A stretch of 64,000 nucleotides of DNA from contig CALGTS010000015.1 of the NCBI GenBank assembly GCA_937901925.1, positions 67,239 to 131,238 on the forward strand. The letters are read 5' to 3'. Positions 5,530-40,187 of the stretch are shown here, in pieces; within the stretch, counting starts at the first letter, position 1; each line of letters opens with the position of its first letter. Below the pieces are notes generated by a model. The model was not told the origin of the DNA. It ran no database searches and saw only the letters and a program-made list of their open reading frames with translations. The stretch comes from an uncultured Bacteroidales bacterium (GTDB lineage Bacteria > Bacteroidota > Bacteroidia > Bacteroidales > WCHB1-69). The translations under genes were made by a program, and so were the position numbers.

Positions 5530-6540
<1,011 letters not shown>

Positions 6541-6545
6541 TTCAA

Positions 6546-24050: not shown

Positions 24051-25085
24051 ATGCAAAACAAAAACCTTGACCCTTCCAAAGAGCGAATGTCGTCGGCTGA
24101 AAAGGAATTTGAAAGAGCGATTCGGCCAGCGGATTTTTCAAACTTTTTTGGGCAAGAGCAAGTGATAGAGAACATTATGATTTTTGTGCAAGCTGCCAAA
24201 AATCGTGGAGAAGCTCTCGACCATGTTCTTTTGCACGGACCTCCTGGGCTGGGAAAAACCACACTTTCTCATATCATCGCTAACGAAATGGGCGTGAATA
24301 TGAAGATAACTTCTGGACCAGTAATTGACAAACCTGGAGAATTAGCAGGACTTTTAACCAATTTAGAGCCCAACGATGTGCTCTTTATTGATGAAATTCA
24401 CCGCTTATCGCCTGTTGTAGAGGAGTATCTCTACTCTGCGATGGAAGATTATAAGATTGACATTATGATTGAAAGCGGTCCTAATGCTCGCAGTGTTCAG
24501 ATTTCGTTGAATCCCTTTACATTGGTAGGTGCAACCACGCGCTCTGGCTTACTAACAGCACCTCTTCGCTCGCGATTCGGTATCAACCTCCGCCTGCACT
24601 ACTACGACGCCGAAACTCTCTCCCGCATTCTGTTGCGCTCAGCTTCCATTCTCAATATTGGCATTACGAAAGATGCCGCTTTAGAGATTGCCCGCCGCAG
24701 TCGAGGAACCCCTCGTATTGCAAACCTCTTGTTGCGCCGAGTACGCGATTTTGCTCAAGTAAAAGGAGATGGAACCATAACATACGACATTACGCAGGTT
24801 GCTCTTTCTGCTCTCAACGTGGACCAACACGGTTTAGATGAAATGGATAACAAAATTTTGGGAACCATTATCGAAAAATTTAAAGGGGGTCCTGTAGGAA
24901 TTACTACCATTGCTACTGCGGTAGGAGAAGACGCTGGAACCATTGAAGAGGTGTATGAACCTTTCCTTATTCAAGAAGGCTACCTGATGAGAACTCCACG
25001 CGGGCGTGAAGCTACCGCTGCCGCATACAAACACCTCGGTAAAATTAAAATCAATGATTCATCTCCCTCATTATTCGATCTTTAA
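24051..25085 (+). CDS. ruvB: Holliday junction branch migration ATPase RuvB
   Basis: 344 aa. Contains [19 protein letters not shown] and [14 protein letters not shown]-like motifs. Confidence 0.97.
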
Positions 25086-25095
25086 TATTTGTACT

Positions 25096-25860
25096 ATGAG
25101 AAAATGCTTCCTTTTTTTTCTTCTACTTTTAGCAAGTTTATCTATCTTTGCTCAAGAAAAACCATCAAGAAAAGGGAAAAAACCGCATATTTCGCAAACA
25201 AATAATTTGCCCGAAAGACCGAGAATGCTAATCGGAACCATCTCTGTAGCACCAACTTGTGAATGGTTGATGCCTCTATCAGATTGTATAGAAAGTTATT
25301 CTCCCAAAATGGGAACTCGATATGGAATTACCTTAGATATCAACATTTCACAAAAAAATCGGTCTGATAACTTCTATTTTATGGTTGGTGCAATGGCAAA
25401 AAACAGCCATTACAATATCGTTTCAACAGAAGAATATACCATACAAGATAGCAGTTATATTTGTAATGCTCAGCAACATTTCTCAGCTATGCACCTTGTA
25501 ATTCCAACAGGAATACGTTTTCGCACAACGCCGAAAAATAGTTGCGTATTTGCTGGAAATATTGGTCTTTACAACCAATTATACCTCACAGGAAAGAGAT
25601 ATGACGAATTTGTTTTCGATGAAAATTATATTCTAAAAACCAAAGAAACAAGTAATACAGATTTTGTTCGCATTTCAGAGTCTATTTTTGCTGGTGTTGG
25701 ATTTGAATATATTTTTCATAAACATTGTCGATTATCTTTTTATGCTAATTATGTATGTACTCTTCCCCCATTTTTTAACAAAGCTGCAACAAATTTTGAG
25801 GGAAAACAGAAAAAAGCATTCAGTCATAGCATTGAATTTTCTTTGGGATTTGGTTTTTAA
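25096..25860 (+). CDS. hypothetical outer-membrane beta-barrel protein
   Basis: Start moved to MRKCFLFFLLLLASLSIFAQ (signal peptide). Alternating beta-strand pattern ending ...SLGFGF (aromatic C-terminus). Confidence 0.6.
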   Translation: MRKCFLFFLLLLASLSIFAQEKPSRKGKKPHISQTNNLPERPRMLIGTISVAPTCEWLMPLSDCIESYSPKMGTRYGITLDINISQKNRSDNFYFMVGAMAKNSHYNIVSTEEYTIQDSSYICNAQQHFSAMHLVIPTGIRFRTTPKNSCVFAGNIGLYNQLYLTGKRYDEFVFDENYILKTKETSNTDFVRISESIFAGVGFEYIFHKHCRLSFYANYVCTLPPFFNKAATNFEGKQKKAFSHSIEFSLGFGF

Positions 25861-25886
25861 CTCATTAATAATCAAAAGAAAAAATA

Positions 25887-26498
25887 ATGAAAATTATTTG
25901 TATCGGCCTAAATTACAAATCACATATTCAGGAATTAAAATGTGAAACTCCTGAACAACCTCTCTTTTTTCTAAAACCTGAAACGTCGATGATTCTTCGG
26001 AATCGACCTTTCTTTCTTCCTGATTTTTCTAATGACATTCATTACGAAGTGGAACTTTTGGTTAAAATCAACAAAGTGGGGAAATTTATCCAAAAGCGAT
26101 TTGCGCACACCTATTATGATGAAATCGGTTTAGGAATAGACTTCACCGCTCGCGACATACAACAGGAAGCTATGGCGAAAGGTTTGCCTTGGGAACTCAG
26201 CAAAGCTTTTGATGGTTCTGCCATTATTGGAAACTTCCTTCCAAAATCTCAATTTCCTAATTTACAGAATATAAACTTTCATTTACAGAAAAATGAACAA
26301 ATTGTGCAAAAGGGAAACTCTGCAGATATGTTGTTTGAAATTGATGATATCATTGCTTATGTTTCCCAATTCATCACGCTGAAGATTGGGGATATTATCT
26401 TTACAGGTACACCCGTTGGCGTAGGAAGAATTGAGATCAACGACCGCTTGCAAGGTTTTATTGAAGAACAAAAAATGTTTGATTTTAGAGTAAAATAG
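25887..26498 (+). CDS. fumarylacetoacetate hydrolase (FAH)-family protein
   Basis: 203 aa. Contains CIGLNY, EVEL..I and GDIIFTGTPVGVG motifs. Confidence 0.85.
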   Translation: MKIICIGLNYKSHIQELKCETPEQPLFFLKPETSMILRNRPFFLPDFSNDIHYEVELLVKINKVGKFIQKRFAHTYYDEIGLGIDFTARDIQQEAMAKGLPWELSKAFDGSAIIGNFLPKSQFPNLQNINFHLQKNEQIVQKGNSADMLFEIDDIIAYVSQFITLKIGDIIFTGTPVGVGRIEINDRLQGFIEEQKMFDFRVK

Positions 26499-26504
26499 AG
26501 AATT

Positions 26505-27863
26505 ATGAATTTAAAATTTCGTCTTATCATTATGAATTTTCTCCAATTTGCAGTGTGGGGAGCTTATCTCACCTGCATGGGAGCCTATCTTGCCACACAC
26601 GAAATGGCAGGAAAAATCGGAATTTTCTACTCAATTCAAGGAATAGTTTCCATTTTTATGCCTGCACTAATGGGAATCATTGCTGACAAATGGATTCCTG
26701 CGCAACGTCTTTTGGGAATATGCCACGGAATCTCGGGAATCGCTATGATTTGCGCAGCCATATACGGACTTAATGCTGGCGATGCTGTGCAATTTGCTCC
26801 TTTATTCTCGTTGTACACTTTAGGTGTAGCCTTTTATATGCCTACATTAGCGTTATCTAATTCCGTAGCTTACAATGCTTTGGAAAGATCAGGGCTGGAT
26901 ACTGTAAAAACTTTCCCCTCCATTCGTGTTTTCGGAACCATCGGTTTCATCATTTCTATGTGGATTGTGGATATTTTGAGATTCCAAACTACAGCAGCGC
27001 AATTTGCTGTCAGTGGTGCAATAGGTGTGATATTGGCACTTTACGCATTCACATTGCCTCATTGTCCCACCAATCCAACCTCCGACAAAAAATCAATTGT
27101 AGAAGCGCTTGGATTGAAAGCATTTGCTCTTTTCAAACAGCCAAGAATGGCTATCTTCTTTGTTTTCAGCATGCTATTAGGAGTTTCATTACAAATTACC
27201 AATGGTTTTGCCAATCCATTCCTACATAGTTTTGGCAATTTGCAAGAGTATTCTAACACCTTTGGCGTTCAACACGCTAATATTCTCATCTCATTATCAC
27301 AAATCTCTGAAACCCTCTGTATTCTGCTAATTCCTTTCTTCTTAAAACGATTTGGTATTAAGAAAGTTATGTTAATTGCTATGCTGGGTTGGGTCCTCCG
27401 ATTTGCTCTTCTCGGAGCAGGAAATCCTGGAAATGGCGTGTGGCTTTTTGTCCTTTCTTGCATCGTATATGGCGTGGCTTTCGACTTTTTCAACATCAGC
27501 GGTTCGCTTTTTGTTGACAAAGAAACAACTCCTGAAACCCGCTCTTCAGCACAAGGTTTATTTATGCTTATGACCAATGGTATTGGTGCTACTATCGGAA
27601 CTCTTGGTGCGCAATTAGTTGTTAATAAGTGTATTCCAAAAGTGGATTGGCATAATTTAGGCATCGGACACGACTTTGGAACCTTTGAAAAAGGTAAAAT
27701 TCTTTGGGATAAACTCACCTCTCTACAATTAGAAACCATTCACGAACAAGCAATGGTCATTTGGCAAGGCTGGCAGCATGCGTGGTACATTTTCGCCGCA
27801 TACGCACTTGTCGTTACCATTCTCTTTGCCATCATATTCAAAGAGAAAAAAGAAAACTTGTAA
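26505..27863 (+). CDS. MFS transporter, nucleoside:H+ symporter (NupG-like) family
   Basis: 452 aa with about 12 TM helices. The N-terminus LRLIIMNFLQFAVWGAYL resembles NHS-family permeases. Confidence 0.7.
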   Translation: MNLKFRLIIMNFLQFAVWGAYLTCMGAYLATHEMAGKIGIFYSIQGIVSIFMPALMGIIADKWIPAQRLLGICHGISGIAMICAAIYGLNAGDAVQFAPLFSLYTLGVAFYMPTLALSNSVAYNALERSGLDTVKTFPSIRVFGTIGFIISMWIVDILRFQTTAAQFAVSGAIGVILALYAFTLPHCPTNPTSDKKSIVEALGLKAFALFKQPRMAIFFVFSMLLGVSLQITNGFANPFLHSFGNLQEYSNTFGVQHANILISLSQISETLCILLIPFFLKRFGIKKVMLIAMLGWVLRFALLGAGNPGNGVWLFVLSCIVYGVAFDFFNISGSLFVDKETTPETRSSAQGLFMLMTNGIGATIGTLGAQLVVNKCIPKVDWHNLGIGHDFGTFEKGKILWDKLTSLQLETIHEQAMVIWQGWQHAWYIFAAYALVVTILFAIIFKEKKENL

Positions 27864-27900
27864 AAAAGTGAAATCGAGAAAATCTTTTAAGAAAAAAAAC

Positions 27901-27908
27901 TATCTTTG
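27901..27908 (+). promoter_or_regulatory. -7 promoter box (TATCTTTG)
   Basis: TAnnTTTG about 45 nt upstream of the 27954 ATG. Confidence 0.5.
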
Positions 27909-27953
27909 CAAACTTTATTTTCAGTACAATATTAAATCATAAAAATCATAAAA

Positions 27954-29150
27954 ATGGAAAAATTTGATCCTGCAACCAACATTGAAAAGTTGGACAAAAA
28001 AGATGCTTACCGTGGTGTAAACCCTATCATTTGCGACAGCGCTACATTTATGTTTGAACGCGCTCAACTAATGACGGACACTTTCCACGGCGAAACTGAA
28101 GGTTACTTCTTATATTCAAGACACTGGAACCCAACTACTTTGGCATTGTCTCAATCATTGGCCGCTATGGAAGGTACAGAAGCTGCTTGGGTTACGGGCT
28201 CTGGTATGGCTGCTATTACAGTAGCTTTGTTACACGAAGTAAAAGCTGGCGATCATATCGTATCAAGTATGACTACCTACGGAGGTACTTTTGCTTTTTT
28301 GAACAACTACATTAAAAAATTTGGTGTTGAAGTTACTTTCGTTAACATGCAAGACCTTGACGCAGTGAAAAAGGCGATCAAACCTAATACAAAAGTGCTT
28401 TATACTGAAGCAATGAACAACCCATTACTTCGTATCGCTAACATTCCTGAACTTTCAAAAATTGCTCATGCTAATGGTGCTAAATTATTGGTTGATAATA
28501 CTTTCACTCCAATGATTTTCTCTCCTTACCGTTTGGGTGCTGACGTGGTTATTTATAGTATGACCAAATATGTTAACGGAATGAATGATTGCGTTGCTGG
28601 TGCAATCTGCGGAACTCAAGATTATGTAAACTCTTTGATTGATGTGAACGATGGTACTGCAATGTTATTAGGTCCTGTTTTGGATCCAATGCGTTCATCA
28701 AGCATTCAAAAGAACTTACATACTTTGCACATCCGTATGAAAAAACATAGCGAAAATGCGATGTATTTGGCAAAACGCTTCAAAGAAACTGGTATTAAAT
28801 ATAACTACCCAGGTCTTGAAGAACACCCAGATCACGAACTTTTCACTAGTATGATGAATGATGGCTATGGTTATGGTGGTATGATTTCTATCGATATGGG
28901 AACTGCTGAAAGAGCCAGCGCTATTATGGAAAAAATGCAAGAACTTGGCGTAGGTTACCTCGCTGTAAGTTTAGGATATTTCAAAACATTATTCAGCAAC
29001 TCTGGAAAATCTACCTCTTCTGAAGTTCCTGACGATATTCAAAAAGAGATGGGTATGAGCGAAGGTCTTATCCGTTTCTCTGTAGGTTTGGATAACGATC
29101 CAGAAAGAACTTTCCAATTGATTAAACAAGCTATCGAAGCTACAAGATAA
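27954..29150 (+). CDS. Cys/Met-metabolism PLP-dependent enzyme (methionine gamma-lyase / cystathionine gamma-synthase family)
   Basis: 398 aa. Contains GSGMAAI and the PLP-lysine motif SMTKYVNG. The exact reaction cannot be assigned by eye. Confidence 0.8.
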   Translation: MEKFDPATNIEKLDKKDAYRGVNPIICDSATFMFERAQLMTDTFHGETEGYFLYSRHWNPTTLALSQSLAAMEGTEAAWVTGSGMAAITVALLHEVKAGDHIVSSMTTYGGTFAFLNNYIKKFGVEVTFVNMQDLDAVKKAIKPNTKVLYTEAMNNPLLRIANIPELSKIAHANGAKLLVDNTFTPMIFSPYRLGADVVIYSMTKYVNGMNDCVAGAICGTQDYVNSLIDVNDGTAMLLGPVLDPMRSSSIQKNLHTLHIRMKKHSENAMYLAKRFKETGIKYNYPGLEEHPDHELFTSMMNDGYGYGGMISIDMGTAERASAIMEKMQELGVGYLAVSLGYFKTLFSNSGKSTSSEVPDDIQKEMGMSEGLIRFSVGLDNDPERTFQLIKQAIEATR

Positions 29151-29170
29151 GCTAACTTATTCAATAAATA

Positions 29171-29207
29171 AAAAGAGAATATATCACACGGTATATTCTC
29201 TTTTTTA
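29171..29207 (+). terminator. rho-independent terminator
   Basis: AAAAGAGAATATA...TATATTCTCTTTT hairpin plus a T-run. Confidence 0.8.
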
Positions 29208-29503
29208 TTAGCATCTTCACAACGAAAATGCGCTTCTCTCAAAACAATAAAAAAAGTTATTGTATCTGATAAAAATCCAAAGTAATATATTTCAATTACA
29301 GTATTTATAAGGCTGAGCCTTCATTTTTCCAATTCCAACCCGTCATCATCAGTGTAGAATATCACTATCTATAATGAATAAAATAGTACGCAGAATATTT
29401 AATCAAAAGAGATAATAGCCAACAGCTATCTCGTTTGTTTATGCTATTTCTGCACAACTTAACAAAAATGTATCCATGCTATCCACCAACTTACGGATCA
29501 TGC

Positions 29504-30400
29504 TTAAATCAGTAACCGGGTTTGCTTTCGGTATTCAGCATACTCGGGTTTGTTTGCTAACTGACGGTTTTCCATTAATGGAATACTGATACACATAAAC
29601 AACGCGGTCATAGCAATAGGACCTAAAATATACCAATCTATCCCATTAACGGCTGCATAGATAATCCAAATACCCCACCAAAACTGAATTTCACCGAAAT
29701 AGTTAGGATGACGACCATTCTTCCACAGCCCAACATTGCAGCACTTACCTGGATGAGCAGCACGAAAATTGTGAATCTGCTTATCTGCAATCAGTTGTAT
29801 AGTAGCAGAAGCCAAACAAACAACACAGCCAAACACCATTAGTACGTACCCAAGCCAACCCATCGTTTCGCTTCGCACAACACACTCACATTCATACAGT
29901 TGTAGCCCAGGAAGCATAGCCACAAAGACCACCAACGTGGGAACCATATTCAAACCGAAAAAATTAATCAAATGAAATAGCACAGGGTGCAGACTGCGAT
30001 ATTTGGTATAGCGCCAATCCTCATGAGCTATACCTTTGAAAGTGATTGCCCAATTGCGTGTCAATCTCCATCCCCAGTAGCACGATGCTACTAATAATAG
30101 TATCACAGGCAACGACCATACACTTGTATATATCCCCCATAACAAGAAAACAATAGGAGGAAACACACTCCAATATGGGTCATATACCGATACATTTTCA
30201 TATACCAATCCCCAAGCCCAAACTACTATCGTAGCTATCACATCTGCCACAAATAATGCCCAAAGAGGGTGTAAAATGGGCAACGAAAGAAAACCACTTC
30301 CTGTCAATTCTCTGAAAACTAACCAGCCAATCAAACTCGCAATTAGATAGATAGCTGTAATCAATATAATACTGCACCCTTTAGAATAGAACCGTTTCAT
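29504..30400 (-). CDS. DUF1295 / steroid-5-alpha-reductase-like integral membrane protein (intact copy)
   Basis: 298 aa, polytopic. The C-terminal motif NGRHPNYFGEIQFWWGIW is typical of the DUF1295/ICMT-like fold. Confidence 0.75.
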   Translation of the reverse strand: MKRFYSKGCSIILITAIYLIASLIGWLVFRELTGSGFLSLPILHPLWALFVADVIATIVVWAWGLVYENVSVYDPYWSVFPPIVFLLWGIYTSVWSLPVILLLVASCYWGWRLTRNWAITFKGIAHEDWRYTKYRSLHPVLFHLINFFGLNMVPTLVVFVAMLPGLQLYECECVVRSETMGWLGYVLMVFGCVVCLASATIQLIADKQIHNFRAAHPGKCCNVGLWKNGRHPNYFGEIQFWWGIWIIYAAVNGIDWYILGPIAMTALFMCISIPLMENRQLANKPEYAEYRKQTRLLI

Positions 30401-30582
30401 ATTAGTTATTAAACTGCAAAAGTACTACATTTTGTCGAAATATTAATTTACATGCCGAAAAATTATATTTTGTCATAATGAAAATAGTTAGTGTCCGAAA
30501 AATATATCCTTTTGCCCATAGTTTTAGGTTTGGGAGAAACAAAAATAACATAGAGGACTAAATCCGCAGAATGGAATCAGCC
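30042..30582. repeat. direct repeat copy A (541 nt), left boundary of the island
   Basis: Aligned by eye to 39564-40105. Substitutions occur only in about the first 135 nt and last 25 nt. About 380 central nt are identical. Confidence 0.95.
30417..30424 (-). promoter_or_regulatory. -7 promoter box (TACTTTTG on minus strand) of the DUF1295 gene
   Basis: The reverse complement of CAAAAGTA lies about 17 nt upstream of the ATG. It is duplicated at 39939-39946 inside the second repeat copy. Confidence 0.5.
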
Positions 30583-30641
30583 TTTTTTTTATTTTGGCAA
30601 AAAAAAGTTTTACTGGACACTAATAATTTAAAATAATTTCG

Positions 30642-30649
30642 TATTTTTG
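30642..30649 (+). promoter_or_regulatory. -7 promoter box P1 (TATTTTTG) at the island left end
   Basis: TAnnTTTG match in a very AT-rich stretch, about 130 nt upstream of the long hairpin. Confidence 0.4.
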
Positions 30650-30775
30650 CCAACATGTTCCATATTGGGCACCGTAAATGTATTTTTAACTTAAAAAATT
30701 GTAATATAGGAAATTAGAGATTAAAGAAACGAATTAAAAAAAACATATTAAAAGGCGTTTTCGCTTTTCTTTGGA

Positions 30776-30881
30776 TGTGGAAATCTGGACAATTTCCTCT
30801 ATGCTACACAAGAAAAGAGAAACGCTCACGATTGTTCGTGAGCTTTCTTGTTTGTAGCATAGGCAGTCCAGAGCCTCCACA
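30776..30881 (+). ncRNA. 106-nt long imperfect hairpin (candidate structured RNA or DNA hairpin element)
   Basis: Paired by hand: TGTGGA/TCCACA, TCTGGAC/GTCCAGA, CTATGCTACA-CAAGAAAG/CTTTCTTG-TTTGTAGCATAG, and CTCACGA-TTGT-TCGTGAG at the apex. Confidence 0.45.
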
Positions 30882-30983
30882 TAAACAATTGAAGTTCACG
30901 ATTTTTTTATGCCCGTTTGTGAAGCCCTAGAAGGGGACGAAAAAGAACCAAAAAAGAACCTAACTGCGTGAGGGAAAGAGAGG

Positions 30984-30991
30984 TACTTTTG
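30984..30991 (+). promoter_or_regulatory. -7 promoter box P2 (TACTTTTG) upstream of the radical SAM gene
   Basis: TAnnTTTG about 40 nt upstream of ATG 31032. Confidence 0.5.
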
Positions 30992-31031
30992 CGGCAAGGA
31001 ACGAGAAAGTATAAATTATAAAGAAAGAAAT

Positions 31032-32852
31032 ATGTTAGTAAGACAATGTAAAAACACGTTTATCCGGTTTATCGGCGAGATGGGGTACATCACCAACCAG
31101 ATGACTCGACACGATAGAACTTACAATGAAACAGGGGCCGATTTCTTGAGAGAGATTAACCGCCAGCCTCAGGAAGTGGACGATATTGTTGCCCGTCTGC
31201 GCAAAGTTTATAACGATAGTGTCTCTACGGAGGAATTGAGAGCGGACTTCATCGAATTTATCAAGGATTTGGACAAGCATCTCTTCCTTGTAGTGGGCGA
31301 AACACCCGAAGAGTTGGATGAAAAAGATTTGGATTTCTCTTACAGCATGGAGAATCCTAAAACTTTAGTGGAGGATTATACACAGGAGACAGATCAGCAA
31401 GTGGATGAAACCACGCAGGATTTCATGCTGGAAGCCACGCAACGTGAACCTCGGCTGAATGGTATACAGTTTGAACTAACCAGCCGCTGTAATGAAAGGT
31501 GCATTCATTGCTACATTCCTAACCCAAAGAAGAATGCGGGTGGCGACATGCCTGTTGAGAAAGTAAAATCATTGATAGATGAGTTCACAGATATGGGTGG
31601 ACTCCACGTGACTCTTTCCGGAGGAGAGGTGTTCTTGCACAGAGACATTATTGCCATAATGCAATATTGTAGAGAGAAAGACATGCAGATTTCCGTTCTG
31701 AGCAATTTGATTGCGTTGAAAGACGAGCTAATCCCTGCCATTAAAGAAGCCAATGTTTCTATTGTGCAAACTTCTCTATACAGTATGGATCCAGATATTC
31801 ACGACTTGATAACTACTGTGAAAGGCTCGCATGTGAAAACCAAGGCTGCCATTGAGAAGTTAGTAGCAGCAGATATTCCCGTGCAGATTTCCTGCCCTAT
31901 AATGAAAGCCAACTACCAAGGTTATGCCGAAGTGCTACAATATGCACAATCGCTACGCTGCAAAGCACAAACTGACTACATTCTGATAGCACAATCAGAT
32001 TTGAATACTACCAATTTAGCAAATCGTCTTTCTTTGGAGGAGACAGGACAATTACTAAAAGATATTATGAAATGGGACAAGGATTACAGAGAGGGTATCC
32101 TGAAACATTCTCCTCTTTCAGAAAAAATTGCTTTTGATCCCGAACAATTCGCTAAACAACCATTATGTGGTGCGGGAGTCAACAGTTGTTGTATTACAGA
32201 AAATGGCGATGTATATCCTTGTGCAGGATGGCAAGCAATGGTGTGCGGCAATGTATATCAGCAGAGTTTGAAGGATATTTGGGAAAATTCTCTGCAAATG
32301 AAGCAGATACGTGCTGTTACACAAGGAGATTTCCCTAAATGTTTGAAATGCAATGCCCGAGATTACTGCGCTATGTGCTTGGTGCGCAATTACAATGAGA
32401 GCGGTGGTAACATGTTCAAAATCAACCAGCACTTTTGTGATGTAGCTTTTATAAACAAAAAAGTGGTGGAAGAATATGCAGCATCCCATGCCGAGGATTA
32501 TGCTATGCACTATGAATGGTTAATATGCGATATCTACCAATGTAGTCGATATGGGGTGGACGCAGCCGATGCGGACAGATATAGAAGACTTGTAACAAAT
32601 TATTTCAAATTAGTTCAAGCACAAAATAATCCCTGTCAATATAATGTACGTGAATATAAAAAGGATTATCAAAGTATTTTGGAAGAGATAAACAATCATT
32701 TGAAGTATGCAATTGATAATTGCAGATGCAGAAAAACGGAAAGTTATCAAAAACTAGAAAAACTGAAAACTGATTTCCCTTTGTCCAATATTATAGCCAT
32801 AAACTATATGATAGATTCAATGCGGAACATTTTAAAAGAAGATAAACAATAA
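31032..32852 (+). CDS. radical SAM/SPASM peptide-modifying enzyme with fused N-terminal PqqD-like (RRE) domain and unassigned C-terminal extension
   Basis: 606 aa. N-terminus ..YNETGADFLREINRQPQEVDDIVARL..ELRADFIEFIKDL is PqqD-like. rSAM cluster CNERCIHCY with GGEVFL. SPASM cysteines CGAGVNSCCITENGDVYPCAG and CLKCNARDYCAMC...FCD. About 127 extra C-terminal residues. Confidence 0.88.
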   Translation: MLVRQCKNTFIRFIGEMGYITNQMTRHDRTYNETGADFLREINRQPQEVDDIVARLRKVYNDSVSTEELRADFIEFIKDLDKHLFLVVGETPEELDEKDLDFSYSMENPKTLVEDYTQETDQQVDETTQDFMLEATQREPRLNGIQFELTSRCNERCIHCYIPNPKKNAGGDMPVEKVKSLIDEFTDMGGLHVTLSGGEVFLHRDIIAIMQYCREKDMQISVLSNLIALKDELIPAIKEANVSIVQTSLYSMDPDIHDLITTVKGSHVKTKAAIEKLVAADIPVQISCPIMKANYQGYAEVLQYAQSLRCKAQTDYILIAQSDLNTTNLANRLSLEETGQLLKDIMKWDKDYREGILKHSPLSEKIAFDPEQFAKQPLCGAGVNSCCITENGDVYPCAGWQAMVCGNVYQQSLKDIWENSLQMKQIRAVTQGDFPKCLKCNARDYCAMCLVRNYNESGGNMFKINQHFCDVAFINKKVVEEYAASHAEDYAMHYEWLICDIYQCSRYGVDAADADRYRRLVTNYFKLVQAQNNPCQYNVREYKKDYQSILEEINNHLKYAIDNCRCRKTESYQKLEKLKTDFPLSNIIAINYMIDSMRNILKEDKQ

Positions 32853-32912
32853 GATTATGGAGTATTGCCGAAAATCCAATAAAGAGTAGGCTTTAATTAA
32901 AACTCAAAAAAA

Positions 32913-33053
32913 ATGAAAAATTACAAAAAGGTAAAAATGGTGGCAAAAAATGCCCCGAGTGGTTCGTACGCAGCAGGCTGCCGAGTGGACACAAGTAAAG
33001 GCAGAAAAAACATGACTGGCAGATACTGCGAAGAATGCCAGATGGCTTCGTAG
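32913..33053 (+). CDS. 46-aa Cys-containing small ORF, candidate RiPP precursor peptide
   Basis: Hand translation gives MKNYKKVKMVAKNAPSGSYAAGCRVDTSKGRKNMTGRYCEECQMAS. It starts 61 nt after the rSAM stop on the same strand and is followed by a stem-loop. It is not in the ORF track because it is under 60 aa. Confidence 0.5.
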   Translation: MKNYKKVKMVAKNAPSGSYAAGCRVDTSKGRKNMTGRYCEECQMAS

Positions 33054-33063
33054 AATTCATATT

Positions 33064-33091
33064 CCTCCCTCATTATTGTTGATGAGGGAGG
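33064..33091 (+). terminator. 10-bp GC-rich stem-loop after the small ORF (attenuator or partial terminator)
   Basis: CCTCCCTCAT-TATTGTTG-ATGAGGGAGG. There is no clear T-run after it. Confidence 0.4.
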
Positions 33092-33162
33092 GATTAATCA
33101 AAGCAGCGGAAGCCGAAAAGCTATAATAGAGTAGGAGAAACTTAAAAATAAATTAAAAACAC

Positions 33163-33372
33163 ATGGGTATTACTCTTTATGACACCCCTAAGGTTTATAA
33201 AATTAAAGATGAGAAACTTTGTCCGATTTTCCCTGCAACTATTGTGGTGAAAGGTGAATGCGAATTACAGACTGTTTACAATGATCAAACTCCCGAAATC
33301 AAGAGGTGGTTATTTGTTGACGACAAAGTTATGTATTCAGAAGAATTTATTCTGAAAAATTATACATTGTAA
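33163..33372 (+). CDS. hypothetical protein (69 aa)
   Basis: ORF-track entry, co-directional with the rSAM gene and followed by a strong terminator. No recognised motif. Confidence 0.5.
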   Translation: MGITLYDTPKVYKIKDEKLCPIFPATIVVKGECELQTVYNDQTPEIKRWLFVDDKVMYSEEFILKNYTL

Positions 33373-33385
33373 TATTTTGGAACTA

Positions 33386-33420
33386 AGACAGCCTACAGTT
33401 TTTTTTGTGGGCTGTCTTTT
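33386..33420 (+). terminator. rho-independent terminator
   Basis: AGACAGCCTAC-AGTTTTTTTT-GTGGGCTGTCT followed by TTT. Confidence 0.75.
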
Positions 33421-33437
33421 AATCTAAAGGAATAGTC

Positions 33438-33839
33438 ATGGATATAAACAATGAAAAATATCAAATAGGAGATATAGTGCAGAAACCAACAGGCGGCCCA
33501 GAAATGATAATCAGAGAAATAAATAGTGATGGGCGAATGATATGCGATTGGTTTGATGAAAATGATAGTTTATGTAACTCAGAAGTGACGGAGGCTGAGT
33601 TAAGATACCATCCAACAGAAACGTTTTCATTTTCTGTCGGCGATTTTGTGTCAACTAACCTTAATAGTGTTTTGAAAATGCAGGTTGTTGAAGTGAATGA
33701 TTCTATGGTTAGATGTGAATGGTACAACAAAAAGGGGGTGTTACAATCATCATACTTCAAAATAGAAGAGTTGGAGAAAGGGAGAATGTATGATGGAAAA
33801 GAAAAGTTTCTTCACGTAAATTATGTACCTTATAAGTAA
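33438..33839 (+). CDS. protein with two tandem YodC/DUF2158-like modules
   Basis: 133 aa. GDIVQKPTGGPEMIIREI..RMICDWFDEND and GDFVSTNLNSVLKMQVVEV..MVRCEWYNKKG both resemble the E. coli YodC pattern (V..K.GGP.M.V..... .C.W). Confidence 0.65.
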   Translation: MDINNEKYQIGDIVQKPTGGPEMIIREINSDGRMICDWFDENDSLCNSEVTEAELRYHPTETFSFSVGDFVSTNLNSVLKMQVVEVNDSMVRCEWYNKKGVLQSSYFKIEELEKGRMYDGKEKFLHVNYVPYK

Positions 33840-33845
33840 ATCAAC

Positions 33846-34118
33846 ATGGGCCTCCTTTCCGACCTCCTATTTCTGAATTTTATCAAACGCCGGGCCAAGC
33901 GCAAAGGGTGCGGCATCGGCGACATGGTGATGCTGAAAACCGGTAGTCCCGTTATGATGGTGGTGGATGTTGATCTTGAGGAGGCCGAATGCGAGTGGTT
34001 CTCCGAAAAGGATCAAAGGACACACCGCAAGTCGTTCATGTTTGAAATGCTCGTGAATGTAAACAATATTAATTCGAAAATAGATCAAAAATTTATAAAT
34101 CAAAAATCACTGAAATGA
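33846..34118 (+). CDS. YodC/DUF2158-like small protein
   Basis: 90 aa. GDMVMLKTGSPVMMVVDVDLEEAECEWFSEKDQ shows the same module. Its stop overlaps the next ATG (ATGA). Confidence 0.6.
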   Translation: MGLLSDLLFLNFIKRRAKRKGCGIGDMVMLKTGSPVMMVVDVDLEEAECEWFSEKDQRTHRKSFMFEMLVNVNNINSKIDQKFINQKSLK

Positions 34119-35293
34119 AAAAATCTTTGTTATTTACTACAATTTTGTTGCCTTTGTGCCTCATTGTGGCCAGCTGCGAAAACAACGCCGAAGTGAAAGT
34201 CACCACATACGAGCCAGCAAACATCACACCTAAGAGCGCAGAGTGTGGCGGTGATGTGGTGCTTAACGGGAACATCCCTTTAAGTGAATTGGGTGTCTGC
34301 TGGAGTACAAAACGCAATCCAACCCCGAATGACAATAAGATGTTTACAAGAGACTACCAGTATCCTTTCTCCTGTAAAATCACTCATCTCACGCCCGGTA
34401 CCAAATATTATGTGCGTGCATACGTTATTCGGGGACATCATGAGGCATACTATGGAAAGGAGATGTCCTTCACCACTCCTATCAACTCGAATAGCGGTGT
34501 GATAGAGGGCAGTCTCAGCGGCAAATTCTCTGTAGCAATGGGCGAACAGGTTTATTTCTCAAAAGGGAATCTGCAATTTCATCCGGTCCAACGAAAATGG
34601 CGTTTCGCCGAGCATCAATGGGACATCATTGGTGCAGAAAATGCTAATGTATCAGAAAACTACAATGGTTGGTTGGATCTGATGGGTTGGGCCACCAGCG
34701 GTTACAATAACTGCAACCCCTGGATGACCAGTTCTTCATCATTAGACTATGGAGAACTTTATGTTGATATTGCAGGAACCAATTACGATTGGGGTGTTTA
34801 TAATGCCATAAGCAATGGCGGAGGCCAGAAGGGGTTGTGGCGCACGCTGGAGTATTCAGAGCTGGTATATCTTTTCGAAACTCGTCATACTTCTTCGGGA
34901 AGCCGCTTTGCTAAAGCCACGGTGAACGGCATCTATGGTGTCATACTCCTTCCTGATGATTGGAACAACTCTTACTATTCGTTAAGCCACGTAAACGACA
35001 ACTCTATCAACGGAGAATACACTTACAATGTAATCAGCTTGTCGGATTGGAATAACAAGCTGGAGAGCCATGGAGCCGTATTTTTGCCTGCCGGTGGTGA
35101 TCGCATAGGCACTTCCATCCATTATTACAGCAATGGCATCCCCACAGCCGCCCAAGGTAATTACTGGACATCTTCCACACATAGCGGTGAACGCGCTTGG
35201 GCTTTATATTTCAGCGACCACTCCTGCTATTGGAACTATCCTGCTTATATCGGTCCCGCCAAGTCGGTCCGGCTAGTCAGGGATGTGGAATAA
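34115..35293 (+). CDS. surface lipoprotein whose C-terminal half resembles the Fibrobacter-succinogenes-paralogous (TIGR02145-like) domain
   Basis: 392 aa. Lipobox LIVASC. N-terminal Ig/FN3-like segment (GVCWSTKRNPT). C-terminal pattern GLWRTLEYSELVYLF..AVFLPAGGDR..YWTSS..AWALYFS..SVRLVRD, recalled from memory as typical of that family. Confidence 0.6.
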   Translation: MKKSLLFTTILLPLCLIVASCENNAEVKVTTYEPANITPKSAECGGDVVLNGNIPLSELGVCWSTKRNPTPNDNKMFTRDYQYPFSCKITHLTPGTKYYVRAYVIRGHHEAYYGKEMSFTTPINSNSGVIEGSLSGKFSVAMGEQVYFSKGNLQFHPVQRKWRFAEHQWDIIGAENANVSENYNGWLDLMGWATSGYNNCNPWMTSSSSLDYGELYVDIAGTNYDWGVYNAISNGGGQKGLWRTLEYSELVYLFETRHTSSGSRFAKATVNGIYGVILLPDDWNNSYYSLSHVNDNSINGEYTYNVISLSDWNNKLESHGAVFLPAGGDRIGTSIHYYSNGIPTAAQGNYWTSSTHSGERAWALYFSDHSCYWNYPAYIGPAKSVRLVRDVE

Positions 35294-35633
35294 CATGATT
35301 TTTCAAAGATTAGTACTAAACAAATATATCACAGTTATGAGTTTTTATTCAGCAAAAACGGGTTTGGAAATACTAGTATGGTCTATGTTGAGCATAGAAA
35401 AAAATCATCGAATGAAATATGAGACAAAGAAAAGAGTCAATGACACGTTAGACATTCTGGAACGCGAGACTTTTTTAGGACCGGATTTTATCGCTGAAAT
35501 ATACAAATTTAGAAGATTGTTCCGCTCTTTGGAGCCTCTTGATACTATACAAGATGAGGATGAATATGAAATGATTAGTGATCAAATTAAGGAGTCCATG
35601 GACAAATGTTTAGCGATCTTGGCATGTTATTAA
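35283..35633 (+). CDS. hypothetical protein (start uncertain; 35337 ATG also possible)
   Basis: 116-aa ORF in the packed operon. Acidic C-terminal half. No motif recognised. Confidence 0.45.
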   Translation: MWNNMIFQRLVLNKYITVMSFYSAKTGLEILVWSMLSIEKNHRMKYETKKRVNDTLDILERETFLGPDFIAEIYKFRRLFRSLEPLDTIQDEDEYEMISDQIKESMDKCLAILACY

Positions 35634-35652
35634 CCAATATAATTGTATAATT

Positions 35653-36117
35653 ATGCAACCCCAAACCTACATCCAGTTATTAGAAATCCTCACCTGTATG
35701 GGAGTGTACAATGCCAGAGTGTATAACTTCAAAGACAATCCTAAAGAGGTGGCCCAGTGTGCCGACGGCCTCAAGGAGATGGCGGAAGACCTGCAATTGC
35801 TTGGCTCCAAAACCTTCAACCCGTCACTGTGGCAAAAGTTCTGCAAAGAGTTGCATGGCGACAAACCTGTAGATATTGCCGCATCGGAACTCCAATCGGA
35901 AGCGTGGCGGCAAATTTTGCAGATACTGCCCCGCATCGCCTCCACAGCAGCCGTGTTGGAGGGAAAATGCCAGGATCCCGAAACGGTGGCCCACATCACT
36001 GCCCGTGAACTCAAACCGCTCCTCAACCAATGCAACGAACTGCTCGATAGCGAGCGCACTGAAATCCGTGGCAAAAGTTTCCTTGAAAGGGTTATGGAGA
36101 AGCTCGGACGAAAATAA
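35653..36117 (+). CDS. hypothetical protein (154 aa, helical)
   Basis: It is the longest ORF here that is co-directional with its neighbours. Antisense ORFs in this stretch are explained by the high GC. Confidence 0.55.
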   Translation: MQPQTYIQLLEILTCMGVYNARVYNFKDNPKEVAQCADGLKEMAEDLQLLGSKTFNPSLWQKFCKELHGDKPVDIAASELQSEAWRQILQILPRIASTAAVLEGKCQDPETVAHITARELKPLLNQCNELLDSERTEIRGKSFLERVMEKLGRK

Positions 36118-36135
36118 AAATACCTTATCGCTATC

Positions 36136-36864
36136 GTGACAGATCACCACACTCATATTGGTCAATTCTACGACATTTACACGTCTCCTTCGGAACTAAT
36201 TCATGTAATGGATTCCGTAGAAGTGGAGCGGTTTGCTTGTTCTTCAACCACTATATGCGAAGGAAATTATGAAAAAGTGTTGTCGGAAATGTCTGAATTG
36301 GTTCGCCTTGCTGTAAATCGTGTGTTACCTGTTCTGTGGATGCTTCCGCAAATGTTGTCGGATGGTGGTTTGCAACGCTTTTTGGATAGTGGTATTCCTT
36401 GGAAGATGTTGAAAATCCATTCTCAACTGAATCCGTTGGCATGGCAATGTGGAAGCAGGCGTTTGCAAAAAGTGGTTCGGTTGTCCAAACAGCTGAATCT
36501 GCCATTGCTGATTCACACAGGAGAAAGTCCAGGTTGCTATCCTTCTTTGTTCGAGCGTGCTATTCGTTACAATCCGTCTGTTACATTCATTTTGGCACAC
36601 GGTCGCCCATTGGACGAAACCATTTCGCTTATGCGAAAATATCCCAATGTTTTGACAGACACCGCTTTTATGCCTGTGAAACATGTCGCAAAACTCTGTC
36701 ATTTCGGTCTCGCTCACCGTATTCTTTGGGGTACAGATGTCCCCATACAACGATATTACAGCCGTAAAGAAGACATCGTAGTTTATTACAAAAAACGTCT
36801 ATGCGAGTTGCGTGATGTTGTCTCAAATGAACATTATGAAACAATCATTTCAAATATCATATAA
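36136..36864 (+). CDS. metal-dependent amidohydrolase (Amidohydro_2/TIM-barrel hydrolase-like)
   Basis: 242 aa with a GTG start. N-terminal DHHTH metal motif, then LLIHTGE, ILAHGRP and ILWGTDVP strand-end motifs. Confidence 0.65.
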   Translation: MTDHHTHIGQFYDIYTSPSELIHVMDSVEVERFACSSTTICEGNYEKVLSEMSELVRLAVNRVLPVLWMLPQMLSDGGLQRFLDSGIPWKMLKIHSQLNPLAWQCGSRRLQKVVRLSKQLNLPLLIHTGESPGCYPSLFERAIRYNPSVTFILAHGRPLDETISLMRKYPNVLTDTAFMPVKHVAKLCHFGLAHRILWGTDVPIQRYYSRKEDIVVYYKKRLCELRDVVSNEHYETIISNII

Positions 36865-36900
36865 AAAAAGTACAAATCGTAAAAATTTCAAATATAATTC

Positions 36901-37134
36901 ATGGACAACACTTTCATCAATGCTATGCTCGCCCTGCATACCCTTGCCGCCAAGGAGACTTTCGGATCGGACGCTGTGGTGGCACTGAACGCCGGAGAGC
37001 CAGGTGTGTACGAGAACAACCCTACCATTATCGAATATGAGCAAAAGGGCTACAAATTCTGTGATGCCAACATGTTCGGAGAAGGGTTGGAAAGAATGGA
37101 AACGCTCACTTTCAGGAAAATGAACAAAGGTTGA
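36901..37134 (+). CDS. hypothetical protein (77 aa)
   Basis: ORF-track entry, co-directional and closely spaced. Confidence 0.45.
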   Translation: MDNTFINAMLALHTLAAKETFGSDAVVALNAGEPGVYENNPTIIEYEQKGYKFCDANMFGEGLERMETLTFRKMNKG

Positions 37135-37161
37135 TAAGGTTAGCGTAAAATATCCAATAGA

Positions 37162-38094
37162 ATGTCAGAAAAGAAATGGAAGATAGACAGCCGGGTGCCG
37201 CACAAATATCGTGGCGGTCGTAGAGGGAAAGGTTCGGAGTTCCCGCGCCACGGCATGAACGAATACGAGGGTGAACGGCTCTCCATGAGCAAACACAGAC
37301 TTTCCAAACACAAAACGATGAGCTACAACAAAGGAAACGGTTGGGCATCGTTGCATGAAAAACATATAGAAGGACTCCTTAACAAGTACCTCAACAAGCC
37401 ATTCGACGAGATGCTGAGCGAATTTTACGCCAAAACCAAATCGCTGCGCCAAAGCGGACGACAACGTATGTGGAACACCCCATCCTACTTCTCTCATGAT
37501 GTGGATGGGTTTAAACATCGCCGATATGTGTCATGGGAAGAGAAAAAGTATTATGTCGATGACAACGGCATTCTCCGTCTAAAGGATAACCATGCCGACA
37601 GCACCCCGAAGACAAAATTGACCCGCAAACAGAAAGCCTACAACCGTCAAGTTCCGGTGCCCACATTCGGCTTGAAAACTGACCAGTTCGAACTTTTAAG
37701 ACAAAAGTACGACACCGCCGATCTTTTTGTGGGAGAATATTACGCTATAGTGGATGGAGAAGTTTGCAAAGTGCCGATTTACACCTCGCCAAAGACAGAA
37801 AATGATTACGAATTGTCTGACAGAATTGCCGTGGATGGTTTTAGTTTTGATGCAAAATTCAACCATGTTTTTTGGAACTACACTTATAAAAAAGCGAACA
37901 GCTACAAAACCGAAGTCCGTGAAAAATTGGAGGCTTTGAAAAAAGAAAACAATAATGAAAATGAGGACGATGTGGCGCGCATGGAGCGTCGGATCTGTTC
38001 CATGAAGGATTATTGGACAATGCACGGATGCATGGCTCTGGAGTTTTATACAAAGAAAATAGACTATATACGATCAAACAAAAATAGAAGTTAA
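37162..38094 (+). CDS. hypothetical protein (310 aa, basic N-terminus)
   Basis: Long ORF with an Arg/Lys-rich N-terminal 60 aa. No domain recognised. Confidence 0.6.
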   Translation: MSEKKWKIDSRVPHKYRGGRRGKGSEFPRHGMNEYEGERLSMSKHRLSKHKTMSYNKGNGWASLHEKHIEGLLNKYLNKPFDEMLSEFYAKTKSLRQSGRQRMWNTPSYFSHDVDGFKHRRYVSWEEKKYYVDDNGILRLKDNHADSTPKTKLTRKQKAYNRQVPVPTFGLKTDQFELLRQKYDTADLFVGEYYAIVDGEVCKVPIYTSPKTENDYELSDRIAVDGFSFDAKFNHVFWNYTYKKANSYKTEVREKLEALKKENNNENEDDVARMERRICSMKDYWTMHGCMALEFYTKKIDYIRSNKNRS

Positions 38095-38111
38095 CAAAAA
38101 CCCTATATACT

Positions 38112-38390
38112 ATGTACCGTCAATTCACCGCCTCCCGCATTTCCGAATCCAACGTGCTGTTCCCGCCCACCATTATCTTCAATGATGAGGGCATCACCAT
38201 CAAAACACCGGCGCTGCTGCACCACAACACCGACTTCATCCCATACGAGGCGGTGTCGAGTGTGATGATCCACACCCCGCTCGCTGGCTTCTCCACCATT
38301 ACCTTCTACGCTTACGGCCGCGAAATCCGCGTTCACGGCTTCCTCCAACGCGAGGTGCGCGAGATGAAACAGTTGGTGGAAGAGAGGTAG
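38112..38390 (+). CDS. hypothetical protein (92 aa; possibly a bacterial PH-like fold)
   Basis: The pattern ..PPTIIFNDEGITIKTP....IPYEAVSSVMIHTPLAGFSTITFYAYGREIRVHGF weakly resembles bPH domains. Low certainty. Confidence 0.45.
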   Translation: MYRQFTASRISESNVLFPPTIIFNDEGITIKTPALLHHNTDFIPYEAVSSVMIHTPLAGFSTITFYAYGREIRVHGFLQREVREMKQLVEER

Positions 38391-38440
38391 AATGTAACAA
38401 CCTTTTGTAGTTAGATATTTACATTTTTATATACAGTTGA

Positions 38441-38476
38441 TTTAAAAAGGAGGGCTTTCACCCCCTCCTTTTTAAA
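38441..38476. terminator. bidirectional terminator hairpin
   Basis: TTTAAAAAGGAGGG-CTTTCACC-CCCTCCTTTTTAAA. The A-run and T-run flank a GC stem between convergent genes. Confidence 0.75.
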
Positions 38477-38608
38477 TCAAGTTTTTTGCTTCATTCTCAA
38501 GGAAAAACTTTGTTTCTCCCAAGGCATATATTCGGTAGCTCAACTCCATTGCCAATTCATCACTCAAACGCTCTATCTTTTCGGCAATGCCATTGCGCCA
38601 CTTTTCGT

Positions 38609-39556: not shown

Positions 39557-39922
39557 TTACACGGTAATTACCCAATTGCGTGTCAATCGCCATCCCCAGT
39601 ACCACGATGCTACTAATAATAGTATCACAGGCAACGACCATACATTTGTATATATCCCCCATAACAAGAAAGCAATAGGAGGAAACACACTCCAATAGGG
39701 GTCATATACCGATACATTTTCATATACCAATCCCCAAGCCCAAACTACTATCGTAGCTATCACATCTGCCACAAATAATGCCCAAAGAGGGTGTAAAATG
39801 GGCAACGAAAGAAAACCACTTCCTGTCAATTCTCTGAAAACTAACCAGCCAATCAAACTCGCAATTAGATAGATAGCTGTAATCAATATAATACTGCACC
39901 CTTTAGAATAGAACCGTTTCAT
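39557..39922 (-). pseudogene. truncated duplicate of the DUF1295 gene (first ~118 codons plus 3 foreign codons)
   Basis: The 121-aa ORF is nearly identical to the N-terminus of 29504-30400 (differences V/A, S/N, C/W, A/V). It ends ...RNWVITV* at the repeat boundary. Confidence 0.9.
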
Positions 39923-40105: not shown

Positions 40106-40187
40106 CTAAATTATTCATGCAAAAAAGTTTTATCGAATAAATAAAAGAGAGAAACAAGTCCGTATGAAGAGAGGTTTTCCGCACAAA

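Follow-up and report, generated by a model that had tools for sequence, protein, structure and literature searches.

Does the 46-codon, cysteine-containing open reading frame (ORF) that follows a radical S-adenosylmethionine (SAM) enzyme gene in an uncultured Bacteroidales bacterium encode the substrate of that enzyme, and what would become of the peptide? The two genes lie on the plus strand, at 32913–33053 and 31032–32852 respectively, of a 64,000-nucleotide stretch of contig CALGTS010000015.1 (assembly GCA_937901925.1, positions 67,239 to 131,238), which is referred to here as the window. An earlier note on this stretch had described them as the precursor and maturase of a peptide that is made on ribosomes and modified after translation (RiPP); both ORFs lie where that note placed them, and the 46-aa ORF reads as quoted there. 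Judged by sequence comparison, the two very probably form a RiPP precursor/maturase pair, and we consider a three-gene RiPP module on a small mobile island, with the steps proposed below taken as a whole, to be likely. What is observed in its favor is the domain architecture, the strict co-occurrence of the three genes, selection acting on the peptide at the protein level, and breakpoints that give its gene a mosaic structure.

The 46-codon ORF belongs to a large, unnamed peptide family

The window peptide (MKNYKKVKMVAKNAPSGSYAAGCRVDTSKGRKNMTGRYCEECQMAS, 46 aa) is matched by no Pfam or NCBIfam (release 20) model, even at E ≤ 10, and 15 family members searched against NCBIfam, including the SCIFF model TIGR03973, likewise returned nothing at E ≤ 10. 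A profile of 14 peptides retrieved at least 1339 clusters at 90% identity from the protein database, all unnamed or 'hypothetical', and an exhaustive hidden Markov model search yielded 145 representatives at 50% identity. The peptide family is therefore large and unnamed, and it resides in gut and rumen Bacteroidales. The earlier note had called the ORF unannotated, which holds only in part: a 96%-identical copy in an NCBI Bacteroidales metagenome-assembled genome is annotated as hypothetical protein MBQ6070622.1, next to MBQ6070623.1, a 'PqqD family peptide modification chaperone'. The strings SYAAGC, YAAGCP, KNAPSGS and KNAPTGS occur in zero papers of the text-searchable literature, although the family may be listed in a bulk survey.

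The anatomy of the family was measured on 121 members, and invariant columns were taken from an alignment of 74. Its layout is MKxYKKVEMVAKNAPxGSYAAGC(P), a hypervariable stretch of 12–28 aa, and CxxC(E)xxx-COOH, with K2, Y4, N13, P15, G17, Y19, A21, G22, C23, C39 and C42 invariant. In the window, codons 1–23 (32913–32981) encode the leader MKNYKKVKMVAKNAP plus SGSYAAGC, a segment delimited by the invariant columns, the synonymous codons and identity to the related locus L014; codons 24–46 plus the stop codon (32982–33053) encode the hypervariable middle RVDTSKGRKNMTGRY and the tail CEECQMAS, delimited by the tail statistics and by the breakpoints against loci L014, L001 and L002 described below. 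The Lys-rich, leader-like N-terminus that had been proposed is thus present, but the conserved part reaches as far as GSYAAGC, and conservation also covers the C-terminus, CxxC(E)xxx. Tyr19 is conserved like the cysteines, with Phe in its place in some distant members. The tail is exactly 8 residues long in 118 of the 121 members, and CxxC is followed by Glu in 111 members, by Asp in 5, by Gln in 3 and by Lys in 2, so that an acidic residue directly follows in 116/121; the window tail is one of the three Gln cases. Pro follows the xGSYAAGC block in 117/121 members, and Arg takes this position in the window peptide. A sub-family (P0452, P0461, P0476 and P0520, and the peptide of locus L025) ends in CYICDYGG rather than CxxCExxx and often has GCR after the leader, like the window peptide; in L025, the CYICDYGG-type peptide precedes an enzyme of the same maturase family.

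The middle is rich in Gly (17%), Pro (9%), Ser (9%) and Asn (8%), and also in Tyr and Asp. Clustering at 50% identity sorts the middles of 210 complete peptides into 147 groups, of which 125 are singletons and one is a large class (n = 38) of the form PQYxxGxGxDxNxGxGNPxxxCxYCEC[ST]K. By comparison with this variability, the conserved leader block shows 725 synonymous against 334 non-synonymous codon differences across loci, and the invariant A, N, A, P, G, S, Y, A, A, G and C are each encoded by 2–4 synonymous codons, with both Ser codon families in use. Because the invariant residues use varied synonymous codons, the precursor ORF is translated and under purifying selection. The codon patterns and the 1339 clusters place it far outside what chance would produce: it encodes a genuine peptide selected at the protein level, not an artefact. 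The start context is A-rich, and an A-rich stretch before the ATG fits translation initiation in Bacteroidetes. Selection and start context together supply the translation signal that the earlier note had asked about.

The neighboring gene encodes an RRE-bearing radical SAM/SPASM protein

The 606-aa product of 31032–32852 (plus strand) contains three Pfam domains, each above its gathering score: a PqqD domain (PF05402; aa 31–83, nt 31122–31280; 31.9 bits against a cutoff of 23.4), the RiPP recognition element (RRE) of the enzyme; a Radical_SAM core (PF04055; aa 148–292; 86.4 bits); and a SPASM domain (PF13186; aa 379–441; 44.9 bits), to which C446, C449 and C469 are added. Across 41 aligned homologues, C153 and C157 of the CxxxCxxC motif are invariant and C160 is present in at least 90%, while C379, C387, C397, C437, C440, C446, C449 and C469 of the SPASM region are all invariant. 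The protein thus combines the radical SAM cluster motif and a PqqD-like RRE with the 7–8 SPASM cysteines of an enzyme with two auxiliary clusters, and the PqqD-like N-terminus, CxxxCxxC cluster and SPASM cysteines pointed out in the earlier note are borne out by the Pfam scores and the invariant columns.

The AlphaFold2 (AF2) model of the maturase (pLDDT 83) consists of an N-terminal winged-helix-like RRE of strands plus helices, a disordered linker (aa 108–126), the radical SAM barrel, the SPASM domain and a confident five-helix C-terminal bundle (aa 466–605, nt 32427–32846). When the full-length model was compared by Foldseek, the RiPP maturases SuiB (whose structure was solved in complex with its precursor), CteB and SkfB ranked first, followed by the anaerobic sulfatase-maturating enzyme (anSME) and PqqE; about 490–500 columns align with the RRE-bearing SuiB and CteB. 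By sequence, PqqE is the top match in the PDB. No NCBIfam family is reached at its cutoff, the best 25 of 47 matches all being far below: AhbD (131 bits) and NirJ2 (116 bits) score highest, with cutoffs of 500, and TIGR04053 and GeoRSP are also among the best matches. The models of the sactipeptide maturases AlbA (99.7 against 850) and StsB (82.7 against 625) are not reached, nor are the equivalogs MftC (99.3 against 265) and PqqE (92.3 against 381), and anSME is absent from the best 25 of the 47 matches. Consistent with these scores and with the fold ranking, the enzyme does not group with the non-RiPP SPASM families, an outcome that the earlier note had named as one that would count against its reading.

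Relatives of the maturase number in the thousands, and close relatives of the module proteins carry only the NCBI names 'PqqD family peptide modification chaperone', 'hypothetical protein' and 'amidohydrolase family protein'. PADLOC, run on the module genes, returned a generic pVip radical-SAM match as its sole result. The C-terminal bundle is optional, most homologues ending at about 485–497 aa, and the longer homologues (P0019–P0108) carry at least five mutually unrelated types of C-terminal extension. The extension fused in P0050 closely resembles, by eye, a free-standing 113-aa ORF of locus L004 (7468–7809). The extension of the window maturase was also considered as a homologue of this ORF, which the comparison did not support (BLASTP E = 0.22).

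Peptide, maturase and an amidohydrolase occur together

Thirteen loci were taken from genome assemblies and further loci from exact-protein look-ups. In 18/18 loci with enough flanking sequence, a peptide ORF of the same family adjoins the enzyme gene on the same strand, either 20–60 nt downstream or up to about 500 nt upstream. This adjacency is kept in either gene order and across enzymes down to about 60% identity, and in L012 two precursor genes with different cores stand in tandem. A conserved small ORF beside homologous enzymes had been set in advance as the check on the proposed pair. The co-occurrence, the fold and the lack of any matching family model together support the reading of the earlier note as an RRE-fused radical SAM/SPASM maturase with an adjacent precursor of an unrecognized family.

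Clustering of all ORFs of the loci revealed one further conserved family, an Amidohydro_2 protein of about 245 aa found in every locus with flank. Its gene abuts or overlaps the enzyme stop codon in L006, L007, L010, L011 and L021; in the window it lies 3.1 kb downstream of the peptide gene (36136–36864, plus strand, GTG start, 242 aa), with inserted small genes in between. The 242-aa form is the commonest database call among its homologues. Pfam assigns the protein to PF04909 (Amidohydro_2; 35.4 bits against a cutoff of 26.4), and no PDB entry was matched by sequence. The AF2 model (pLDDT 95.8) has eight strand-helix units and in Foldseek resembles LigI, uncharacterized amidohydrolases, ACMSD and dihydroorotase (TM about 0.6–0.7, E = 1e-9). 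The invariant residues are H5-x-H7 in strand 1, K93 in strand 4 (91–95), H127 in strand 5, H155 in strand 6 and D201 after strand 8, as in an Amidohydro_2 (beta/alpha)8 barrel, in which strand 1 carries HxH and an Asp follows strand 8. From the invariant columns and strand positions rather than coordinates, this HxH/K/H/H/D set is predicted to provide the ligands of a dinuclear (subtype I) site, K93, H127 and H155 lying at the strand ends where its bridging Lys and two further His would be expected.

The amidohydrolase is a candidate leader or tail peptidase acting on the peptide, a role for which we see about even chances. Precedents are PurAH, a dinuclear amidohydrolase that removes the bottromycin follower peptide, and MftE, a metallohydrolase that cleaves modified MftA (PMC10885120). 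By the same ORF clustering, the conserved gene set of the compared loci contains no exporter or immunity gene and no cofactor-using or cofactor-tailoring enzyme. The earlier note was thus right that no transporter accompanies the pair, but in stating that no protease is adjacent it overlooked the conserved amidohydrolase.

DUF805b elements and a hairpin flank the precursor gene

Two copies of the DUF805b RNA motif (Rfam RF02914; cmscan, gathering score 35.6 bits) lie on the plus strand around the precursor gene, copy 1 at 32857–32892 (35.8 bits), ending 21 nt before the peptide ATG, and copy 2 at 33103–33137 (44.7 bits), 26 nt before the next small ORF. Both match the full 35-nt Rfam model. 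The element was also found independently upstream of every peptide gene as GCCGAAAA-N8-10-AGAGTAGGC; an RNA structure sought across it in our own alignment was not supported (3 pairs, no covariation), and the element is that of Rfam DUF805b. The motif stands about 20 nt before the peptide ATG in 10 of the 13 scanned loci. In 144 kb of related loci there are 15 further matches, all beside the module and on its strand; the copies beyond those 10 precede other small ORFs, and one tRNA is the sole other Rfam match. The motif usually begins at, or overlaps, the stop codon of the preceding gene, where it is translated as ...AEAEKL, and is therefore a nucleic-acid element between cistrons and not a protein feature. 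Rfam describes RF02914 only as a candidate for cis-regulation, and its name comes from a different gene family. Unlike this description, the motif here is intercistronic, about 20 nt before precursor genes and other small ORFs, and located at mosaic junctions.

A hairpin of 15 bp with a 4-nt loop (33061–33094, plus strand) begins 8 nt after the peptide stop codon; the earlier note had rightly noticed a stem-loop here but gave it as 10 bp at 33064–33091. Its folding energy is -23.9 kcal/mol (z = -4.75), and 0/200 shuffled sequences fold as well. It has no T-tract, and the terminator scan accordingly makes no call. Hairpins at least as strong as -22 kcal/mol, unrelated in sequence, stand 3' of the peptide gene in 8/14 gene copies. 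The hairpin may form the 3' end of the precursor transcript or stabilize it.

The core-encoding segment behaves as an exchangeable cassette

The window and L014 are 95.9% identical over 25039–32980, after which the similarity ends. The breakpoint at 32980 is the penultimate base of the codon for the invariant Cys23, and within the precursor gene the two loci show 100% nucleotide identity up to codon 23. Similarity returns at DUF805b copy 2 (33098–33147) and again in a DUF2158 gene; beyond 35651 the two loci are 97.8% identical. In blastn comparisons, L001 and L002 likewise break from the window at 32980/32981. L026–L030 carry the window's own core type, and their similarity continues through the core and the hairpin until it breaks at the end of DUF805b copy 2 (33135 in L026 and L027), where a different small ORF follows. 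Because the breakpoints fall at leader codons and at DUF805b, the core with its hairpin, and likewise the small ORFs that follow, behave as exchangeable cassettes, bounded by the leader codons and the DUF805b copies.

In the window, the small ORF after DUF805b copy 2 encodes 69 aa (33163–33372, plus strand) and has no family match in NCBIfam, Pfam or PHROGs; in other loci unrelated small ORFs take its place. It represents the cassette after DUF805b, and it may have a link to the function of the module, which we regard as putative. The next small ORF was also considered as cognate immunity for the core, and this was rejected: core type and small-ORF type assort independently. The window core type is followed by a 72-aa Zn-ribbon ORF in L026–L030 and by the unrelated 69-aa ORF in the window, and in L014 the 72-aa Zn-ribbon ORF comes after another core type. 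Between the peptide and amidohydrolase genes, the variable stretch further contains two consecutive small DUF2158 proteins (33438–33839 and 33846–34118, plus strand), the first of which consists of two domain repeats. Only these DUF2158 proteins match PHROGs, to the phage family phrog_3261 of unknown function.

Proposed mechanism and alternative explanations

In the mechanism that we propose, the 46-aa precursor would be translated and its conserved N-terminus MKxYKKVxMVAKNAP... bound by the PqqD-like RRE of the 606-aa enzyme. The radical SAM core and the two SPASM auxiliary Fe-S clusters would then cross-link invariant residues at both peptide ends, namely Cys23 in GSYAAGC and the CxxC-Glu/Gln motif four residues from the C-terminus, most likely by Cys thioether bridges, which would close a macrocycle over the hypervariable middle of 12–28 residues. 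The conserved amidohydrolase, predicted to be dinuclear, would remove the leader or trim the tail. With DUF805b on its 5' side and the hairpin on its 3' side, the precursor cistron could yield a transcript of its own that is stable and abundant, and the core-encoding segment would be swapped between strains as a cassette.

Several points weigh against this reading. The radical chemistry on the peptide is something we infer, as is the sactipeptide- or ranthipeptide-type chemistry that the earlier note had ascribed to the maturase. The window peptide is itself atypical, with Arg instead of Pro after Cys23 and CEECQ instead of CxxCE; if Glu is the acceptor, the window copy would need another one. 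An exporter, an immunity gene and a classical protease are all absent from the conserved set, an unusual situation for an antimicrobial that is secreted, and in the window the amidohydrolase gene is 3.1 kb away from the peptide gene. Amidohydro_2 proteins are better known as decarboxylases, hydratases and lactonases, and the dinuclear site is predicted from invariant columns and strand positions. Moreover, the Gly/Pro/Ser/Asn-rich middle could be a mere linker.

With regard to the chemistry, thioether formation is known from CteB, PapB and QhpD. The three invariant Cys, and the acidic residue that CxxC nearly always has after it, make it the most likely chemistry here, and we hold it tentatively, with somewhat less than an even chance that the maturase makes Cys thioether bridges on the peptide. 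The conserved Tyr/Phe19 may keep C–C or other radical chemistry in play: the same pair might use Tyr19 as the reactive center of a C–C or C–O link (a PqqE-like Glu–Tyr or a streptide/cyclophane-type link), or might carry out epimerization or other editing, with the Cys residues serving as cluster ligands or in a disulfide. The conservation of Tyr19 (Tyr or Phe in distant members) on a par with the cysteines, the near-invariant Glu at the peptide C-terminus, and the ranking of PqqE as top PDB sequence match and of the C–C cross-linker SuiB as top fold match all fit such chemistry. It is nevertheless rather unlikely, because the Phe found for Tyr in some distant members disfavors phenol-oxygen chemistry, three strictly invariant Cys are a hallmark of thioether substrates, and the likeness to PqqE and SuiB is that of a common scaffold, PqqE scoring 92 bits against an NCBIfam cutoff of 381. 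A different fate of the peptide, in which it gives rise to a cofactor or another small molecule inside the cell, would follow the logic of pyrroloquinoline quinone (PQQ) or mycofactocin: terminal residues would be modified and excised by the amidohydrolase, and the middle would be a disposable linker. Here the trio of peptide, RRE-radical SAM-SPASM enzyme and metallohydrolase without an exporter mirrors MftA/B/C/E and PqqA/D/E (PMC10885120), the conserved tail keeps a fixed distance from the C-terminus, and the composition of the middle (G 17%, P 9%, S 9%, N 8%) is linker-like. However, the module has a patchy distribution, is carried on an island and occurs in several chromosomal contexts, unlike a housekeeping cofactor pathway, and no cofactor-using or cofactor-tailoring enzymes are conserved downstream. 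The middle is replaced abruptly by recombination instead of drifting, the conserved 38-member class implies selection on it, and L012 holds tandem precursors with different cores, all of which make the cofactor route improbable. Direct reading of the window peptide shows no ExxxY motif of PQQ precursors, and the family ends in CxxCExxx, not in the GVY C-terminus of mycofactocin.

It is highly improbable that the small ORF is no substrate at all, that is, that the enzyme is a non-RiPP SPASM protein of the anSME or AhbD/NirJ type standing next to an unrelated small Cys protein. AhbD and NirJ2 do give the top NCBIfam scores (131 and 116 bits) and anSME is among the fold matches, but the two scores are far below the cutoffs of 500, and the maturase has an RRE, which solved anSME structures do not, and aligns over its full length with SuiB and CteB. 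Furthermore, adjacency is strict in either gene order with enzymes down to about 60% identity, no sulfatase or heme gene was noted near the module among the window ORFs, and the window peptide, by direct reading, lacks the sulfatase motif C/S-x-P/A-x-R.

Returning to the macrocyclic RiPP that we favor, the module might act as a cassette-diversified peptide system. A constant scaffold, formed by the leader and the GSYAAGC ... CxxCE tail and clasped by the radical SAM enzyme, would display a hypervariable loop that is swapped between strains by recombination, with leader codons and DUF805b as junctions, on an island often situated among defence genes. This would provide a population-level peptide 'library' with which gut Bacteroidales could antagonize particular strains, signal or defend themselves against phages, with DUF805b as an intercistronic expression element and/or cassette junction. 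We offer this extended model as speculation that is unlikely to hold in full; if true, the orphan DUF805b motif would gain its first function.

Comparison with known systems

The family is a real, widespread and uncharacterized RiPP family that resembles SCIFF-type ranthipeptide or sactipeptide systems; its unusual features are the two conserved ends around a cassette-exchanged core, the amidohydrolase partner and the association with DUF805b. By sequence, it belongs to none of SCIFF, AlbA/StsB, PqqE, MftC and anSME. As in the SCIFF/ranthipeptide pairs CteA–CteB and Tte1186a–Tte1186, a short Cys-containing precursor adjoins an RRE-radical SAM-SPASM maturase, the conserved genes include no dedicated exporter or immunity gene, and the system is widespread in one anaerobic lineage. 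By comparison with SCIFF, the window family has three invariant Cys rather than six, in line with the earlier note's exclusion of SCIFF and with the lack of a TIGR03973 match; it occurs in Bacteroidales rather than Clostridia, and it has a hypervariable middle between conserved ends, an amidohydrolase partner and an island location. In common with QhpC/QhpD and PapA/PapB (freyrasin), the SPASM enzyme could join a Cys sulfur to the carbon of an acidic residue, but the motif is CxxCE here, with Gln in the window copy, instead of CX3D repeats, and no dehydrogenase subunits are encoded near the window module.

The mycofactocin and PQQ systems share with the module the peptide, the RRE, the radical SAM-SPASM enzyme, a metallohydrolase without exporter and a C-terminal motif at a fixed distance, whereas the window hydrolase is an amidohydrolase TIM-barrel, not of the creatininase fold, and the distribution of the module is patchy and mobile. 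The bottromycin enzymes PurAH and BotAH are dinuclear RiPP hydrolases of the amidohydrolase superfamily and set a precedent for the proposed role of the product of 36136–36864 (PMC10885120); they differ in that the window hydrolase is an Amidohydro_2 protein, another Pfam family, and that the bottromycin pathway is YcaO-based rather than radical SAM-based. Compared with anSME, the window maturase has an RRE, and by fold anSME ranks below SuiB, CteB and SkfB as a match to it.

Bacteroidales dominate gut and rumen communities, and the family adds to them a precursor group that exceeds 1300 clusters and has its own maturase and hydrolase, in which peptide and enzyme fall outside any specific Pfam or NCBIfam model and the hydrolase matches only the generic PF04909. 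A RiPP mining study of Bacteroidales treats other clusters (PMC10352776). In antiSMASH, the rule for ranthipeptides depends on the SCIFF model (PMC13289728) and would for that reason miss the peptide family. The module offers a candidate radical SAM reaction on a compact three-Cys scaffold, and more than 100 unrelated natural loop sequences on one scaffold make it attractive for peptide engineering. It also ties an orphan Rfam motif to a concrete genomic setting and is a clear case of core-cassette exchange in a RiPP gene.

The module lies on a small island flanked by direct repeats

The island spans about 7.7 kb (30676–38388, plus strand), with all genes co-directional, and is common to loci in other chromosomal contexts. 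Its borders follow from the ends of blastn blocks, on the left at 30676 (L001, L026 and L027), 30677/30682 (L002) and 30712 (L028), and on the right at 38251–38388. It is enclosed by direct repeats of about 540 bp that are 98–99% identical by repeat search and pairwise alignment. The left repeat (30042–30585) covers the 5' third of a DUF1295 gene on the minus strand plus its upstream region, and the right repeat (39564–40107) contains a truncated DUF1295 fragment (ORF 39557–39922, minus strand), this gene family turning up twice in the ORF clustering. L014 has the same repeat pair around its island, while in L026–L030 a Ser/Thr kinase and an AAA_14/DUF4143 gene stand upstream in place of DUF1295. 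The direct repeats and the alternative genomic contexts support the earlier suggestion of foreign DNA, to which base composition contributes nothing informative. No integrase is encoded within the island between the repeats.

In other loci, a large serine recombinase (L018/L019; L018 3596–5194), AbiE (AbiEi/AbiEii) and PDC-S01 (L006; 3342–4457 and 9040–10738) and PDC-S04 (L004; 3770–4651) are found beside the module. IMG/VR yielded one distant relative only (35% identity), and phages are thus not the typical carriers of the module. This viral contig (L031) encodes the 35%-identical radical SAM/SPASM enzyme at 5974–7428, preceded by a 40-aa ORF (5795–5917; MKKFKKPMLMAQGSVKMADCRPNSRPCGRPCNPPGPGGHR) whose leader resembles that of the peptide family and whose core is different.

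Upstream of the maturase gene, TACTTTTG (30984–30991, plus strand) matches the Bacteroidetes -7 box TAnnTTTG by pattern, 41 nt before the ATG, and is kept at the same place in L001, L002, L003 and L026, the sub-clade of the window. It is a putative promoter of the enzyme gene. Scans for sigma-70 promoters and intrinsic terminators performed no better than on shuffled sequences. About 20 nt upstream of the box lies a tandem repeat, AAAAAGAACC / AAAAGAACCTA (30940–30965, plus strand), conserved at the same place in the same four loci, which could be a regulator site.

A near-perfect palindrome, GTTGATTTAAAAAGGAGGG...CCCTCCTTTTTAAATCAAG (38437–38480), lies close outside the right border of the island and matches both strands in L014. 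Elsewhere in the window, a thiamine pyrophosphate (TPP) riboswitch (RF00059; 13969–14067, minus strand; 67.6 bits) is present and is unrelated to the module.

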